A DNA stretch of 19,155 bases from Armatimonadia bacterium (lineage in GTDB: Bacteria > Armatimonadota > Zipacnadia > Zipacnadales > UBA11051). The DNA lies in NCBI GenBank assembly GCA_039683575.1, contig JBDKRC010000285.1, forward strand, positions 1-19,155, in the 5' to 3' direction. Positions 3,794-15,118 of this stretch are shown in pieces; positions within the stretch are counted from its first letter, which is position 1; each line of letters begins with the position of its first letter. A program made the translations under genes and the position numbers. The notes under the pieces are model-generated. The model did not search any database, was not told the DNA's origin, and saw only the letters and a list, made by a program, of their open reading frames with translations.

Positions 3794-3907
3794 TTATCCC
3801 TGGCGCTGTTTGTGGCGCGGGTTCTCGCAGATCACCCGCACGATGCCATGCCGCCGAATGATCTTGCATTTGTCGCAACGCGGTTTGACTGATGCCGTTA
3901 CTTTCAT
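3794..3907 (-). CDS. rpmJ: 50S ribosomal protein bL36 (Zn-ribbon form)
   Basis: Not in the ORF track; manual translation [37 protein letters not shown] (37 aa), GGGAG SD. Confidence 0.97.
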
Positions 3908-5747: not shown

Positions 5748-7079
5748 TTACGACAGGAAGCCCTTGTAGTGCCGCATCAGAAGCTGCGCTTCAACCTGCT
5801 GCATCGTATCGAGAGCCACGCCAACAACGATGAGAAGCGAGGTGCCGCCGACCAGCCCGAACGTCCGCACTCCAGTGATATCGCCCACGTAGTACTGCAT
5901 CAGAGCGATGATGCCAAGGAAGATGGCCCCGGCCAGCGTTATGCGGTACAGGATCTTGTCCAGGTAATCACGCGTCCGCTCGCCTGGGCGGATGCCCGGG
6001 ATGGCTCCACCGTTCTTCTGCAGGTTCTCAGCGATCTGTTCGGGGTTGAACGTAACCGCCGTGTAGAAGTAGGTGAACACTACCACCATTGCAAAGTAGA
6101 GCAGCGAGGCGAACCAGTTCTGGCCAGGGGTGGTGAAGTCCACCATCGCAGCGATTGCATTGCGGACCTGGTCAGACGTGACGGGCAGTATCCGTGCGAC
6201 CCCGTCGACAAACCCAGGACTGTTCAGGAAGCTCGCAATGGTTGCCGGGAACATGACCACTGAGATTGCGAAGATGATCGGGATAACGCCAGCCTGGTTG
6301 ACGCGCAGCGGCAGGAACGTTGTCTGGCCGCCCCAGACTTTGTTGCCTTTTACGCGCTTGGCGTACTGGACTGGGATCTTTCGCTGCGCCTGCTGGACCT
6401 TGACGATCCCGTAGATCGTGCCCAGGAAGATCAGCAGCAGGAAGGCAATATTGGCCAACCCGATTTCGCGACCCACATACAGGACTGTCGTCTGGGCTAC
6501 CTGCTGCGGGATCGAGGTCATGATGCCCACAAAGATGATGAGCGAAATGCCCTGACCGATGCCCTTGGTGGTGATCATGTCTCCAAGCCACATCAGGAAC
6601 GAGGTCCCAGCGGTCATCATCAGGATGCCAAAGATCGTCTCCAACCAACCGCCGGAGTACGCCCCGGCGCTACGGAACCACGTGATCATGCCGGCTGCCT
6701 GGATGATTGCCAGACCCACCGTCATGTACTTCGTCCAGGCATTGATCTTCTTCTGGCCGTATTCGCCCTCTTTTTGCAGCTGCTCCAGTTGCGGGATCGC
6801 CATCACCAGGAGCTGCATGATAATCGAGGCGTTAATGTAGGGCATGATGCCCAGAGCCAGAACCGAGAAACGCTTCAGCGATCCCCCGACGAATGTGTTG
6901 AACAATTCGAAAATGTTGCCGCCCTGGAACAGGTTGGCGAGCTTCTCGATGTCCACACCAGGCATCGGCACGTGGGCACACCCGGCATATACGGCAAACA
7001 TCGCCATCACAAAGAAGATGCGCTGCCTGACGTCAGGAAGCCGAAGAGCGGTTGCCAGCGCGGCCAGACGCTGTTTCAT
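5748..7079 (-). CDS. secY: Preprotein translocase subunit SecY
   Basis: ALGIMPYINASII, GIGQGISLIIF, GVIPIIFA, IPGIRPGE, GGTSLLIVVGVA; multiple hydrophobic segments. Confidence 0.98.
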   Translation of the reverse strand: MKQRLAALATALRLPDVRQRIFFVMAMFAVYAGCAHVPMPGVDIEKLANLFQGGNIFELFNTFVGGSLKRFSVLALGIMPYINASIIMQLLVMAIPQLEQLQKEGEYGQKKINAWTKYMTVGLAIIQAAGMITWFRSAGAYSGGWLETIFGILMMTAGTSFLMWLGDMITTKGIGQGISLIIFVGIMTSIPQQVAQTTVLYVGREIGLANIAFLLLIFLGTIYGIVKVQQAQRKIPVQYAKRVKGNKVWGGQTTFLPLRVNQAGVIPIIFAISVVMFPATIASFLNSPGFVDGVARILPVTSDQVRNAIAAMVDFTTPGQNWFASLLYFAMVVVFTYFYTAVTFNPEQIAENLQKNGGAIPGIRPGERTRDYLDKILYRITLAGAIFLGIIALMQYYVGDITGVRTFGLVGGTSLLIVVGVALDTMQQVEAQLLMRHYKGFLS

Positions 7080-7540
7080 CCGGCGATCACCTCAACGCTG
7101 CCACCCGCCGCCTCGATCTTCGCCTTGGCGCTTTCACTAACGGCATGCGCGCGTATCGTCAGAGCCTTGGTCAACTCGCCGGTGGCGAGGATCTTCAGGC
7201 CCTTCTTGCCCATCTTCTTGACCCAACCCAGCTCCTGCACCAGTTCCGGGGTGACCACGGTGCCTGCCTCCAGCCGGTCGAGCTGGCTGAGGTTCAGGAT
7301 CGAGTGCTGTTTGCGGAACATCCCGATGTTGTGTGACTTGTTCGAAGTCCCACGCAGCTTGGGCGTCCTCATGTAAAGCGGGTTCTGACCACCCTCAAAG
7401 CCAGGGCGGACATTAGTGCGGGCGTGCTGGCCCTTGATACCGCGACCGGCATACATGCCCTGTCCGGACCCCAACCCGCGGCCGATCCGCCTGGTCTTTT
7501 TGAGCTTGCCTGAAGCGCGGCTTAGTTGACTGAGTTTCAT
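7076..7540 (-). CDS. rplO: 50S ribosomal protein uL15
   Basis: MKLSQL...RIGRGLGSG...GFEGGQNPL...KIEAAGG. ATG 7540 with GGGAG SD. Confidence 0.97.
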   Translation of the reverse strand: MKLSQLSRASGKLKKTRRIGRGLGSGQGMYAGRGIKGQHARTNVRPGFEGGQNPLYMRTPKLRGTSNKSHNIGMFRKQHSILNLSQLDRLEAGTVVTPELVQELGWVKKMGKKGLKILATGELTKALTIRAHAVSESAKAKIEAAGGSVEVIAG

Positions 7541-7634
7541 AATTGCTCCCGCCATCCGTACTGCTACTACGTTCATTCACCCGGGGGGGACTGTGCGCTC
7601 CCTACGAGAGAAAGAGCTTCACCCACCCGTTTGC

Positions 7635-7820
7635 TTACGCCGACTCCACCGTGACCATATGCTGCACCACGCGAAGCATTCCGTGCACGTCTGCCGTATC
7701 CGGCAACAGCACGCTCTGATGCGGCCGCTTCAGTCCCAGGGCCAACGCGGTCTTGCGCAGCTTGGGCTTTTGGCATATCAAACTTTTGGTCAGCGTGACC
7801 TTGATCTTGTTCTCGCTCAC
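7635..7820 (-). CDS. rpmD: 50S ribosomal protein uL30
   Basis: KIKVTLTKSLI...TALALGLKR...GMLRVVQHMVTVE. GTG start with GAGGAGG SD. Confidence 0.95.
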   Translation of the reverse strand: MSENKIKVTLTKSLICQKPKLRKTALALGLKRPHQSVLLPDTADVHGMLRVVQHMVTVESA

Positions 7821-7877
7821 TGCTACGGCCTCCTCGAACCGGCTCTGCCGGAATGACGGGTTGCCCGTCCGTTGCCT

Positions 7878-8246
7878 CTAGAACTCCAGGCCACCCTCAC
7901 GCGCCGCGTCGGCCAGGGCCTTGACCCGGCCATGGAAGGGGCGCCCGCTGCGGTCGAAGACGACGGCGCTCACGCCCGCGGCCTTGGCCCGCTCAGCAAT
8001 CGCCTTGCCGATGGCCTGCGCCGCGGCAATATCGCTCTTGCTCTTGAGGCTCTCGCTGATGGTCTTGTCCAGCGTGGTCGCCGCGGCCAGCGTGCGTCCC
8101 GTGCTGTCATCAATGACCTGCACGTGGATGTGCCGCAGGCTGCGGAATACCGATAGTCGCGGCCGCTCCGGCGTACCGGATACCTTCCGCCGCACCCGGC
8201 TCTTGCGCCGCAATAGGCTCTGTTGCTTATCTCTGAGTCTGCTCAT
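7878..8246 (-). CDS. rplR: 50S ribosomal protein uL18
   Basis: [25 protein letters not shown]...[18 protein letters not shown]. Confidence 0.98.
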
Positions 8247-8339
8247 CGTTTCCCTGCCGTATCTGCCGCCTCGTTCGACCTGGCACCAAATCTACCAGCT
8301 CAGGCGACTCGCTTTCGCGCACGGTGCGCTGATTTTCGA

Positions 8340-8885
8340 CTAACCGCCGGCCTTCGACTTGCCAGCCTTGCGGCGGACCAATTCGCCCTGATAGCGGATG
8401 CCCTTGCCCTGGTAGGGCTCGACCTTCCGCAGCTTCCGGATCTCAGCAGCCGTCTGCCCCACCATCTGCTTGTCCGGACCTTTGACGATTACGTTCGTCG
8501 TACCCTCGACCTCGAGCGTCACGGTCGGGCGGGGCTCAACCACCACGGGGTGCGAGAAGCCCAGGCGCAGGAGCAGGTTATTCCCCTGCTTCTCAGCGCG
8601 GTAGCCGACGCCGTTGATCTCGAGACGCTTGCTGAAGCCCTCGGTGACCCCCGTCACCATGTTGGCCAGCAGCGCCCGTGTCAAACCATGCAGTGACCGG
8701 TTCTCGCGCTGGTCGTTGGGCCGCGTGATGACAATCTTGCCGTCCTCGACCACGATTGTCAGGTTAGGGCTGAAGCTGCTATTGAGCTCCCCACCGGGGC
8801 CCTTCACCGTCACGGCATTGCCCTCGGCGACGGTCACCGTTACGCCCTTGGGTATGGGAATGGGTTGTTTGCCAATCCTGGACAT
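8340..8885 (-). CDS. rplF: 50S ribosomal protein uL6
   Basis: [39 protein letters not shown]. Confidence 0.98.
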
Positions 8886-8934
8886 GATTCAAATCACCCT
8901 TCAAACGCACCCGAGTCCGGGCGCGGCACACTCG

Positions 8935-9369
8935 CTACCAGATATACCCGATGACCTCGCCGCCGATGCCGCGCTTGCGCGCTTCGCGTGACGTCATGAT
9001 GCCTTCGCTCGTAGATACAATGCAGACGCCAAGGCCGTTGAAAACGCGCGGCAGCTTGTCCTTCTGCACGTATACGCGCCGACCGGGCTTGCTGATCCGC
9101 TTCAGCCCACGCAGAACCGGCTCACGGTTCGCGTCGTACTTCAGCCTGATGCGCAAGCTTTGACCCTTGCCCACGAGTTGGAAGCCACGGATGTAGCCCT
9201 CCTCGTGGAGAATCTTGGCGATCTCGCGCTTGATCTTCGACACCGGCACCTTGACGTTGGCATGCTTCGCCTGTGCCGCGTTGCGGATCCGCGTGAGCAT
9301 GTCAGCAATCGGGTCTGATACCACGCCCGTGCCTTTGACTCCCGCTGTGTCAGTGCTCGCTTGTTTCAT
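8935..9369 (-). CDS. rpsH: 30S ribosomal protein uS8
   Basis: [49 protein letters not shown]. Start is either ATG 9369 (GGAG SD, 15-aa extension) or GTG 9324. Confidence 0.96.
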
Positions 9370-9443
9370 GAGCCTATCTCCACCCGACCTGCTCGTATTG
9401 GAAGAACGCTCCATCGGGAGCCTTCCTGTGGATGTCGCAGCCA

Positions 9444-9697: not shown

Positions 9698-10240
9698 TTA
9701 CGCCTTGACGAACGGCATTCCCATCAGCTCCAACAGCGCCCGCGCCTCTTCGTCATTCTTCGCCGTCGTCACGATCGTGATGGACATCCCCCGCTGCCGC
9801 TCGATGTCATCGTACCCGAGTTCCGGGAAGATGAGCTGGTCGTCCAGCCCGAACGAGTAGTTCCCACGACCATCAAACGCGTTTCGGGATACTCCGCGGA
9901 AGTCGCGGATACGGGGCAGCGCGATGCTCAGCACCCGGTCCATGAACTCCCACATCCGCTCGCCGCGCAAGGTCACCCGGCAACCAATCGGCATATCCTT
10001 GCGGATGCTAAACGCTGAAACCGACTTCTTGGCCCGCGTGATGACCGCCTTCTGCCCCACGATCGTGGTCAGCTCACGCACCGCGGCGTCAAGCGTATCG
10101 GTGTTCTCACGCGCCTGGCCAACGCCCATGTTCACGGAGATCTTCTCCAGACGCGGGGCTTCCCACACGTTCTTGAACCCGAAGCGCTCCATCAGCGCCG
10201 GCAATATCTCTGATTCGTATCTGTCTTTCAACCTGGGCAT
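9698..10240 (-). CDS. rplE: 50S ribosomal protein uL5
   Basis: [40 protein letters not shown]. Confidence 0.98.
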
Positions 10241-11116: not shown

Positions 11117-13204
11117 CTAATCCTCCGCCGCCTCGCGAGCCTTCCGTTCCGCCACAATCCCCTCCGCCAGATGCGACGGCACTTCCTGGTAATGCGAGAA
11201 CTCCATCGTGTAGCTCGCCGCGCCCTGAGACAGTGACCGCAGGTCGGCTGCATACCGCGCCATCTCCGCCAGCGGCACCGAAGCCTTCACTACCACCATG
11301 CCCCCGCCAATTGGCTCGGTCCCTTGGATCTGGCCGCGCCGCCCGGACATGTCACTCATGATATCGCCCATGACGGTCTCGGACACGGTGATCGATGCCA
11401 CCATGATCGGCTCGAGCAATATCGGGTTCGCCTGCTGCAAAGCATTCCTGACCGCGATGCCACCGGCCATACGGAAGGCCTGCTCAGAGCTATCCACCGG
11501 GTGGGAGCTGCCATCGTCCAGGATGACCCGGACGCCAACCACCGGTGCCCCGGCCAGGATGCCCTTCTTGAGCCCGTCCTGCACGCCCTTCTCAACCGCC
11601 GGGATGAAGTTCGTGGGCACCGAGCCACCCTTGACTTCATTTACAAACTCATTCTCATCAACACCAGGCGGCTGCGGCTCCATGCGTACCCACACATCAC
11701 CAAACTGTCCACGACCGCCGGTCTGCTTCTTGTGCCGCCCCTGCACTCGCGTGGACTTGGAGATCGTCTCGCGGTACGGGATCAGCGGGTCGCTCAGATT
11801 GACTTTGACATCAAACCGGTTCGCCAGCCGCTCGGCCAGGATATCAAGATGTAGCGCGCCCATGCCCGATACGATCAGTTCGTTCGTCTCCGCGCTGCGC
11901 TCGTAGTGCAGACCCGCGTCCTCTTCGGCCACACGCGCCAGCGACATCCCGAGCTTGTCTTCGTCCGCGCGGCTCGCAGCGGTCATGGCTGCCGAGTGCA
12001 TCGGCAACGGCTGCGGCGGCTGCGGGTAGACAATCTGTGCCTTCGGATCGCAGAGCGTATCACCGGTGTGTGCGTTCTCCAGCTTCGACACCGCGCCAAG
12101 GTCTCCAGCGACGAGCTCGCTCACGTTCTGCGACTGCTTGCCCTGCATGGTCGCCAGGCCGGAGAGCTTTTCCTTGCTGTTCCGCCGGCTGTTGACCACT
12201 GCCATGTCGCTCATGGCCTTCCCCGACGCTATGCGTAGCAGGTTGATTCGCCCCACGTAGGGGTCGCTCATGGTCTTGAAAATGAACGCTGAGAACGTTT
12301 CGCTAGCGCTGCAGGACCGCGTCTCTTCATCCTCGCTACCGGGCTTTGTGCCCGTCCAGGCCGCACGTGCGTTGGGTGCCGGGCAACTGCTCTTCATGAA
12401 CTCCAGCACACCGCCCAGGCCCTTGGCCACGTATGCATCGGAGCACAGTACCGGCACCATCAGCCCCTGCGCCACCGCCTTCTGCAGGCCCTGCGCCAAC
12501 TCCGCAGCGCTCAACTCGCCAGCTTCCAGATACTTCTCGGTCAATTCATCATCGGTCGCGGCGACCGCGTCTACCAGCGCCTCACGGGCCGCGGACACCT
12601 CGTCCGCCATGTCACCGGGGACCTCCCCGGCCTTGATGTCCTTGCCCTCGCCCGTATAGGCCTTCATTGCTACCAGATCTACCACGCCGGCGAAACTGCC
12701 ACCGCTGCCGATCGGCAACTGTACCGCGACCGCTTCGCAGTCTTTGAGCATTGTGTTCATGCTCTCGACTGCACTGGCGAAATCGGCGTGCTCTTTGGTC
12801 ATCTTGGCGACGAGGCCGACCACCGGAACGCCCATTTCACGTGCTGTGTTGTATACCTTGATCGTGTGGATCTCCACACCCGACTGCGCGTCCACTACCA
12901 TCAGCGCTGCGTCCCCCACCTTCAGCGCGTAAGGCACGTCTGCGAAGAATTCCGCGTATCCGGGGGTATCAACGATATTGATCTTCACGCCGGCGTATTC
13001 GCAGTGGCACAGGGCCGGGGTGATCGTGATCTTACGGCTTACTTCTTCTGGCTCAAAGTCTGCCGTCGAGGTTCCGGCATCAACGCGCCCCAGCCGGTCA
13101 ATTGCTCCGGTGGCGAACAGCAACCCCTCAACCAGGGTAGTCTTGCCCGACCCACGGTGACCGATCAGTACCAGGTTTCGTATTTGCTCCGTAGAAAAGG
13201 CCAC
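11117..13204 (-). CDS. Elongation factor G paralogue (EF-G II / FusA2-type), about 695 aa
   Basis: Five-domain EF-G layout: GHRGSGKTT, EEVSRKITI, DTPGY, GMGALHL, PYRETI, KKQTGGRGQFG, GSSHPVDSS, LLEPIM, RRG, LRSLSQG. The G1 GH..GKT and DTPGY forms match the EF-G II class rather than canonical FusA (AHIDAGKT, DTPGH). GTG start at 13204 with GGAGG SD. Confidence 0.93.
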   Translation of the reverse strand: MAFSTEQIRNLVLIGHRGSGKTTLVEGLLFATGAIDRLGRVDAGTSTADFEPEEVSRKITITPALCHCEYAGVKINIVDTPGYAEFFADVPYALKVGDAALMVVDAQSGVEIHTIKVYNTAREMGVPVVGLVAKMTKEHADFASAVESMNTMLKDCEAVAVQLPIGSGGSFAGVVDLVAMKAYTGEGKDIKAGEVPGDMADEVSAAREALVDAVAATDDELTEKYLEAGELSAAELAQGLQKAVAQGLMVPVLCSDAYVAKGLGGVLEFMKSSCPAPNARAAWTGTKPGSEDEETRSCSASETFSAFIFKTMSDPYVGRINLLRIASGKAMSDMAVVNSRRNSKEKLSGLATMQGKQSQNVSELVAGDLGAVSKLENAHTGDTLCDPKAQIVYPQPPQPLPMHSAAMTAASRADEDKLGMSLARVAEEDAGLHYERSAETNELIVSGMGALHLDILAERLANRFDVKVNLSDPLIPYRETISKSTRVQGRHKKQTGGRGQFGDVWVRMEPQPPGVDENEFVNEVKGGSVPTNFIPAVEKGVQDGLKKGILAGAPVVGVRVILDDGSSHPVDSSEQAFRMAGGIAVRNALQQANPILLEPIMVASITVSETVMGDIMSDMSGRRGQIQGTEPIGGGMVVVKASVPLAEMARYAADLRSLSQGAASYTMEFSHYQEVPSHLAEGIVAERKAREAAED

Positions 13205-13269
13205 TCGGAATCCTCCAAGCCAAATACATGTCACGTAGTCTCAATTGCTGCTGGCTCGCGCCCAGATCC

Positions 13270-14171: not shown

Positions 14172-15038
14172 CTACTCCTCTGTCTCGGCGGCGGGTGACT
14201 CGGTGTCCTCGTCACCCAGCGCGGCGATCAGCATGTCTTCTTCAGGTGCGGCCATCTCGACGCTTTCAATCTTCGCCGGGGCGGCATCCAACTGCGGGGC
14301 GACCGGGGCAACTGCCTGCGGTTCGACGGCCACCGCAGCCTCGGCTGCCGGAGCGACCTCAACTGCTTCCGCAACCGCGGGACCCTGAGGCTGCGATTCC
14401 TTCTTCGGGGGAAGGATGTCGCCGCGGTAGACCCATACCTTGACGCCGATGTGACCGTAGCCCGTCCGGGCCTCGGCGCGACCATATTCCACGTCAGCGC
14501 GCAGAGTGTGCAGTGGCACGCGCCCCTCGGGGCCAACGGACTCCGAACGTGCGATCTCGGCGCCGCCGAGGCGCCCGCTCACTGCGCAGCGGATACCGCC
14601 CGCTCCGAGCCGCATCGCCCGCTCTACCGCCTGCCGCATCGCGCGCCGGTAAGACACGCGACGCTCGATCTGCCGCGCGATGTTGTCGGCCACAAGCTGG
14701 GCATTGATATCCGGTTCCTTGGTCTCCTCGACGTTGACCCGAACCTTCTGCCCGATCATCTTCTCGAGCCGCTGGCGCAGCACGTCAACGTCACGCCCGC
14801 CCTTACCGATGATGATCCCGGGCTTCGCCGTCGAGATCGTTACCGTGACGGTGTCCGCCGCACGCTCGATGAAAATGTCCGAAATCGAAGCGTTCCGCTG
14901 GTTCTCGGCCACGAAGTTGCGCACGCGGATGTCCTCGATGAGTTGGTCGCGGTATCGCGGCCCCTCAGCGAACCACCGGCTGCGTGCCTCGCGGATCACG
15001 CCCAGTCTAAAACCGTATGGATGTACCTTCTGTCCCAT
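14172..15038 (-). CDS. rpsC: 30S ribosomal protein uS3 with long acidic C-terminal tail
   Basis: [54 protein letters not shown] 15038 with GGAG SD. Confidence 0.98.
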
Positions 15039-15118
15039 TAGTGGGTCACTCCGTACCTTCGTCTTTACGCGAACTTGCTTCTCCAACCCCGCTGGGAAGG
15101 CCCAGTGAAGCCCGTCCC

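Follow-up and report, generated by a model that had tools for sequence, protein, structure and literature searches.

The gene order rplR-rpsE-rpmD is among the most stable in bacteria, and uS5, the product of rpsE, is essential. In Escherichia coli K-12 these genes are part of the spc operon (rplN-rplX-rplE-rpsN-rpsH-rplF-rplR-rpsE-rpmD-rplO-secY), whose S8-binding site is an autogenous ribosomal-protein leader; we know of no leader for uS5. Bacteria of the Candidate Phyla Radiation show a lineage-wide loss from the same operon, that of the dispensable gene rpmD, which encodes uL30. Outside the control of ribosomal proteins, 5′-terminal stem-loops of the ompA type stabilise bacterial mRNAs. 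In PMC3616713, the regulatory RNAs of E. coli ribosomal-protein genes are described as mostly confined to Gammaproteobacteria, so control of the S8 type should not be assumed in Armatimonadota.

The stretch of DNA analysed here (the window) is a whole contig of 19,155 bp (G000:C285) from an Armatimonadota genome, and carries an S10-spc-alpha ribosomal cluster on its minus strand. The cluster has the gene order of the E. coli K-12 spc operon, on one strand and with short spacers; unlike that operon, it lacks rpsE and has an EF-G gene between rpsQ and rplN, while rpsE forms a one-gene unit on another contig. The clean, clade-wide removal of one gene from this stretch of the operon recalls the loss of rpmD in the Candidate Phyla Radiation; unlike that gene, which is truly lost, rpsE is essential and survives as one copy at a new site. 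Given how stable rplR-rpsE-rpmD is, a clean class-wide exception represents a rare genomic change. It is a lineage-specific change within a known operon and not a new kind of system. Full-text literature searches gave no description of rpsE relocation or of Armatimonadota ribosomal gene order, and a term search of the main article of PMC10290634, which named Zipacnadia, likewise gave no mention of either.

The empty rpsE slot in the ribosomal cluster

The slot and its neighbours occupy the following positions of the window, to which we add the EF-G gene:

11117–13234, minus strand: EF-G gene, 705 aa, between rpsQ and rplN (Pfam GTP_EFTU, EF-G_D2, EFG_III, EFG_IV, EFG_C)
8340–8885, minus strand: rplF (uL6), upstream neighbour (Pfam Ribosomal_L6)
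7878–8246, minus strand: rplR (uL18), 122 aa, full-length, stop codon ending at 7878 (Pfam Ribosomal_L18p, 152 bits, profile positions 2–116 of 116)
7821–7877, minus strand: rplR-rpmD spacer, 57 bp, the normal rpsE slot (from the sequence; bridged by independent DNA and RNA-library contigs)
7635–7820, minus strand: rpmD (uL30), 61 aa, GTG start, full-length (Pfam Ribosomal_L30, 60 bits, profile positions 1–51 of 51)
7076–7576, minus strand: rplO (uL15), downstream neighbour (Pfam Ribosomal_L27A)

As the first-pass annotation had described, the rplR stop at 7878 and the rpmD start at 7820 leave a gap of 57 bp, by sequence and by Pfam, and the genes on either side are intact: uL18 and uL30 are full-length, and the Shine-Dalgarno sequence of rpmD (GAGGAGG, 7835–7829) lies within the spacer, 8 nt 5′ of the GTG codon. 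No promoter-like or terminator-like site was found on the minus strand of the spacer (7821–7877). The statement that the window holds no uS5 was also correct; whole-genome profile scans with PF00333 and PF03719 both gave no match on this contig. The remaining S10-spc-alpha genes are all there, as had been claimed, colinear and on one strand. Pfam confirmed S10, L3, L4, L23, L2, S19, L22, S3, L16, L29, S17, L14, L24, L5, S14, S8, L6, L18, L30, L15, SecY, Adk, Map, IF-1, S13, S11, S4, RpoA and L17; L36, outside the Pfam set, was identified as a 37-aa ORF at 3794–3907 on the minus strand.

The EF-G insertion between rpsQ and rplN is a second departure from the canonical cluster, separate from the rpsE gap and absent from the earlier description. 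A close EF-G homologue was present in 40 of 40 relatives, in most of them on the rplR contig and about 3 kb away from rplR (judged by eye). In several genomes of other classes (few genomes, again by eye) an EF-G homologue is found closer to rplR, only some 1.4 kb on its upstream side, suggesting that the gene was inserted at another point there. Elsewhere in the cluster, uS3 (14172–15086, minus strand) is 304 aa long with Pfam domains that stop at residue 219; the remaining 85 or so residues form a C-terminal extension.

The genome comes from a metagenome assembly of 352 contigs, its contamination estimated at 2%, and one might suppose that rpsE had collapsed out of the rplR-rpmD interval during assembly, or that the copy found on the other contig (C171, below) had been binned from another organism. 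A Logan DNA contig of 3,814 nt (X1) nevertheless spans 7000–9000 in one piece, a contig of 1,390 nt from a different study (X5) spans 7000–8004, and contigs from two RNA libraries (metatranscriptomes; X3, 7626–7959, and X4, 7643–8003) bridge the spacer; no insertion at 7821–7877 is reported in these bridging DNA and RNA-library contigs. X1 may derive from the sample that yielded the genome, and DNA can be present in RNA libraries, so the comparative evidence weighs more: the arrangement recurs in independently assembled genomes of the class throughout, 73 of 79 class genomes have exactly one uS5, always of the class type, and a nearly closed genome (G179, 7 contigs) is arranged alike. An assembly deletion, which the first-pass annotation had allowed for, is refuted by the independent contigs and the class-wide arrangement, and we regard an assembly or binning artefact of any kind as scarcely conceivable.

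Relocation of rpsE as a one-gene unit

Whole-genome scans with PF00333 and PF03719 returned a sole uS5 match above the cut-off of each model, on contig C171. The predicted unit around it, given in part in coordinates of locus L010, is as follows:

C171 25416–26036, minus strand: rpsE (uS5), 206 aa, a frame found by script, with the same product from public gene callers (P0002)
L010 10122–10094, minus strand: predicted sigma-70-type promoter, TTGACA-17 nt-TATCTT with a TG extension, 10 of 12 consensus positions
L010 10083–10064, minus strand: 5′ hairpin GCCTCC-8 nt-GGAGGC, G+C-rich, its stem beginning 10 nt after the −10 box
L010 10052–10048, minus strand: Shine-Dalgarno sequence AGGAG
L010 10037 to 9417, minus strand: rpsE, with its ATG at 10037 and its stop codon ending at 9417
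L010 9388–9356, minus strand: predicted intrinsic terminator 3′ of rpsE

Both domains of the product are complete: Ribosomal_S5 (PF00333) scores 83 bits over profile positions 1–65 of 65 (cut-off 27.1), and Ribosomal_S5_C (PF03719) 88 bits over positions 1–71 of 71 (cut-off 21.5). Against the PDB it found 166 sequences at E <= 1e-10, the best at 156 bits over query residues 18–190, and it aligns with solved bacterial uS5 along the whole core. The gene is thus elsewhere rather than lost, as the first-pass annotation had supposed. Its three-way suggestion that rpsE had been relocated, fused or replaced by a xenologue fared unevenly: relocation is favoured, fusion is excluded, since the 206-aa product stands alone and its gene has a promoter and a terminator of its own, and a xenologue is kept as a possible rival, which we weigh below. 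A longer ORF of 228 aa was rejected as the rpsE product; its start falls inside the −10 region, and gene callers give 206 aa.

Directly 3′ of rpsE are three tandem genes (L010 6809–9213, minus strand) that join an N-terminal methylation motif (N_methyl) to DUF1559, a pairing familiar from Planctomycetota. The upstream neighbours, in divergent arrangement, are a DUF4838 gene and a tandem repeat of 88 bp. The repeat (L010 10177–10571; 4.5 copies with 96% matches, and inverted repeats inside it) sits just 5′ of the rpsE promoter and overlaps a 174-aa ORF without a Pfam match. Across the class, we found no neighbours of the relocated rpsE conserved beyond genus or family level.

Because rpsE is a separate transcription unit, uS5 would be uncoupled from operon control, as had been proposed, presuming that such control exists in Armatimonadota. 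The class offers a natural experiment, with an essential small-subunit protein made from its own promoter as against translational coupling inside a 30-gene transcript.

We examined how widely the arrangement is shared among the 79 species genomes of the host's GTDB class, of which 75 have uL18 and 73 have uS5, with one match each; completeness is 76–93% in the six genomes that gave no match to uS5. In all 70 genomes that hold both genes, rplR and rpsE lie on different contigs (listings compared by eye, 13 by script). Loci of rplR were taken from 51 genomes, one from each; 39 of these genomes belong to the order of the window's genome, which is counted among them, and 12 to other orders of the class. 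In every one of the 51 loci rplR runs straight to rpmD or rplO with no uS5. None of 30 class rpsE loci has L6, L18, L30 or L15 within 1.5 kb of rpsE. G179 sets a minimum for the distance between them: the contig of rpsE continues for 291 kb or more on both sides of the gene and that of rplR for 440 kb or more, so that at least about 730 kb separate the two genes.

Outside the class, we sampled 136 genomes from the other classes of Armatimonadota (each at least 90% complete). In all 136, rpsE follows just after rplR on the same contig and strand, with a gap between the uL18 and uS5 Pfam matches of less than 300 bp in 131 and of 415–841 bp in five, all of one family (f36). In the one of these five genomes that we looked at (G100), a retropepsin-like aspartyl protease ORF lies between rplR and rpsE (L121 1421–1936, minus strand; Asp_protease_2, 31 bits).

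Comparison of the rplR-rpmD adjacency in sister genomes agrees with what was seen in the window, with rpsE lacking from every rplR locus examined in the class and canonical in every genome sampled outside. The class-wide presence of the relocation, set beside its complete absence elsewhere in the phylum sample, indicates that it is a shared derived character, ancestral to the class; related genomes are non-independent samples, so that this is one event seen many times. The relocation could serve as a marker for this class of Armatimonadota, being present in all scorable class genomes and in 0 of 136 sampled outside. It also bears on binning, as uS5 is absent from the ribosomal-protein contig used to link or bin genomes of the class.

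A further variation was seen at the same junction. A tblastn search, with a 61-aa query only, found no rpmD behind rplR in 11 family-f4 genomes (genera g12, g114 and g115; loci L042, L053, L056, L082, L084, L085, L087, L089, L092, L094 and L095), in which 43–282 bp lie between rplR and rplO. Genus g7 of the same family keeps rpmD.

Predicted promoters and 5′ hairpins of the class rpsE genes

We examined the leaders of 50 rpsE loci from the class. A promoter-like site of the form TTGACn-16 to 18 nt-[T/G]AnnnT lies within 300 nt upstream in 43 of them, and 31 of these 43 promoters are followed by a G+C-rich stem, perfectly paired over 6 bp or more, whose start is 4–12 nt after the −10 box. The 31 stems show 14 different inner hexamers. 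Dinucleotide shuffles gave a stem in a mean of 4.0 of 43 leaders, with a maximum of 11 in 300 shuffles. In the rpsE leader on C171 a U-rich stretch lies between the hairpin and the Shine-Dalgarno sequence, and in many leaders of the class a U-rich tract follows 5–8 nt after the hairpin (by eye). RNAalifold, applied to an unselected MAFFT alignment of the 43 leaders, found 0 pairs because the hairpins are out of register in that alignment, and Rfam gave no match at the C171 rpsE leader or in the window.

Such hairpins are not confined to rpsE. In the window's own genome, 15 of 114 strict promoter-like sites carry one, and two of these 15 precede a tRNA-like sequence (judged by eye from the printed downstream sequences); the rpsE hairpin may therefore be generic, and we counted this against the favoured account of the move. 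The most economical reading of these sequences would be a strong constitutive promoter followed by a 5′-terminal hairpin of the mRNA-stabilising type, probably used also for other highly expressed genes. The likeness to ompA-type stem-loops comes from position only, in that a G+C-rich hairpin is predicted within a few nucleotides of the 5′ end of the transcript.

The class leader also resembles an S8-type leader in placing a structured 5′ element, here a predicted one, before a ribosomal-protein gene; unlike the S8-type leader, it has no Rfam match, and binding and rRNA mimicry are candidate properties only. On the analogy of such leaders, excess uS5 might bind the 5′ hairpin and repress its own translation, so replacing operon-coupled control. 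We consider an S5-specific autoregulatory leader of this sort improbable. The presence and position of the hairpin are conserved over 14 inner hexamers, and its frequency of 31 in 43 exceeds both the shuffles and the 15-in-114 background, but the stem sequence itself is not conserved, leaving no obvious mimic of an rRNA site. The N-terminal domain of uS5 has a fold of the double-stranded-RNA-binding type, and the U-rich tract that recurs 5–8 nt beyond many of the hairpins would likewise suit a regulatory element; set against these are the lack of an Rfam match and of any consensus structure from the unbiased alignment, the similar hairpins after other strong promoters of the genome, two of them before tRNA-like sequences, and the absence of a perfect stem from 12 of the 43 promoters and from all 7 loci in which no promoter was recognised.

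Divergence and origin of the class uS5

We wondered how the relocated protein itself compares with uS5 from the canonical slot. Maximum-likelihood trees built from one set of 42 taxa give the class a stem branch of 1.48 substitutions per site in uS5 and of 0.11 in L6+L18+L15, so that the uS5 stem is about 13 times longer than that of the neighbouring ribosomal proteins. Identities at matched divergence depend on where they are taken: inside the class, uS5 is more conserved than L6/L18/L15 (65% vs 54%, ratio 1.21), between the class and other classes it is less so (48% vs 52.5%, ratio 0.91), and among the other classes the ratio is 1.04. Mean uS5 identity is 47.6% between the class and other Armatimonadota and 57.4% among the other classes; identity to E. 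coli uS5 is 44.3% for the class and 49.5% for other Armatimonadota. These comparisons suggest that a burst of amino-acid change in uS5 coincided with the move, on the class stem, and was followed by strong conservation. A branch of this length could distort marker-gene trees for the class.

Two histories could underlie this pattern. We favour, at a probability of about 0.6, the one in which the native rpsE moved and then changed fast, over replacement by a foreign gene. In the latter, an rpsE from a foreign phylum would have been gained singly at the new site and taken over, the native operon copy being deleted. Such a xenologous displacement, which we hold to be possible but rather unlikely, would explain the new location and the long stem (1.48 vs 0.11) together, and would account for a class uS5 about equally far from other Armatimonadota (47.6%) and from E. 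coli (44.3%), and for the ratio of uS5 to neighbour identity of 0.91 across classes as against 1.04 among the others and 1.21 inside the class. The native move has, for its part, to accommodate a uS5 stem as long as an inter-phylum distance, a class uS5 barely nearer to other Armatimonadota than to E. coli and the lack of conserved neighbours around the relocated gene; we also found no genome in which a distant rpsE coexists with one in the operon, and counted each of these points against it.

A foreign origin implies a donor, and a search of 1.84 billion representative proteins, which carry no taxon labels, turned up no close donor lineage outside the class. The class type accounts for two representatives, at 311 and 273 bits, and the next, at 195, 175 and 170 bits, are only 46–52% identical to the query. 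No outside sequence exceeds about 57% identity to a member of the class (leaving out a fragment, P0128, that nests inside the class clade), and the best 120 homologous proteins are all of the class type. Solved structures point in the same direction. Against B. subtilis uS5 the relocated protein scores 151 bits, and two canonical-slot Armatimonadota proteins 186–187 bits; against T. thermophilus uS5 the values are 120 vs 147–154 bits. The relocated protein has the lower score for most structures; with E. coli and Flavobacterium its score roughly matches that of one of these two canonical-slot proteins. Lower structure scores together with a greater distance from E. coli are the pattern expected of a sped-up lineage, and displacement would also need extra divergence to explain them.

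The trees divide between the two histories. A free quick tree with 52 representatives set the class beside three representatives without a taxon label (SH-aLRT 91), which are not Armatimonadota-like, as a xenologue might; metagenome relatives of one of them (P0132-like) have the canonical context L6-L18-S5-L30-L15, and their uS5 is only about 50% identical to the class type. A tree constrained to unite all Armatimonadota had a log-likelihood 34.5 above that of the free quick tree (p-AU 0.925), for a clade that was named after tree inspection, with quick searches and 188–203 columns. Together, the absence of a visible donor, a core free of indels, the structure scores and the constrained tree lead us to favour a native move over xenologous displacement.

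With a native move, events might have run as follows. In the ancestor of the class, the native rpsE would have left the spc operon: a copy would have taken hold far away, and a clean deletion would then have removed the one in the operon, joining rplR to rpmD by a short spacer. From then on uS5 would have been made from a self-contained one-gene transcription unit, with the burst of change on the class stem accompanying the move and strong conservation following it. The 5′ hairpin may stabilise or tune the mRNA and so keep the supply of uS5 in step with the rest of the ribosome now that the operon no longer couples them.

In its architecture the class uS5 is like the canonical-slot uS5 of the same phylum, with two domains and a core that aligns without indels, and it is gapless with E. 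coli over 162 columns. Unlike the canonical-slot proteins, the class type has a distinctive set of residues: in ten of the 162 columns its fixed residue is one that no more than 5% of the uS5 of other classes have. Of these ten, three fall in one N-terminal loop, which reads NRVSK in E. coli and DRTRK in the class, and which in other bacteria contacts 16S helix 34 and holds spectinomycin-resistance sites. It is tempting to join these features in a single account, in which exit from the operon led to adaptive remodelling of uS5 and altered contacts at the decoding centre, with the hairpin as an S5-specific feedback operator, which would make it the first ribosomal-protein leader to be described for uS5; we judge that account improbable.

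In one class locus (L140, genome G032) the uS5 frame extends upstream through a long Gly/Pro/Arg-rich repeat of GGPGG-type units, possibly an N-terminal extension or an assembly problem, there being Ns in the sequence. At the C terminus, and unlike the canonical-slot form, all class uS5 have a conserved DPY motif, behind which comes an acidic tail of low complexity, rich in Glu and Ala (L001, L011–L039); this tail varies in length, and the open frames span 206–329 aa.
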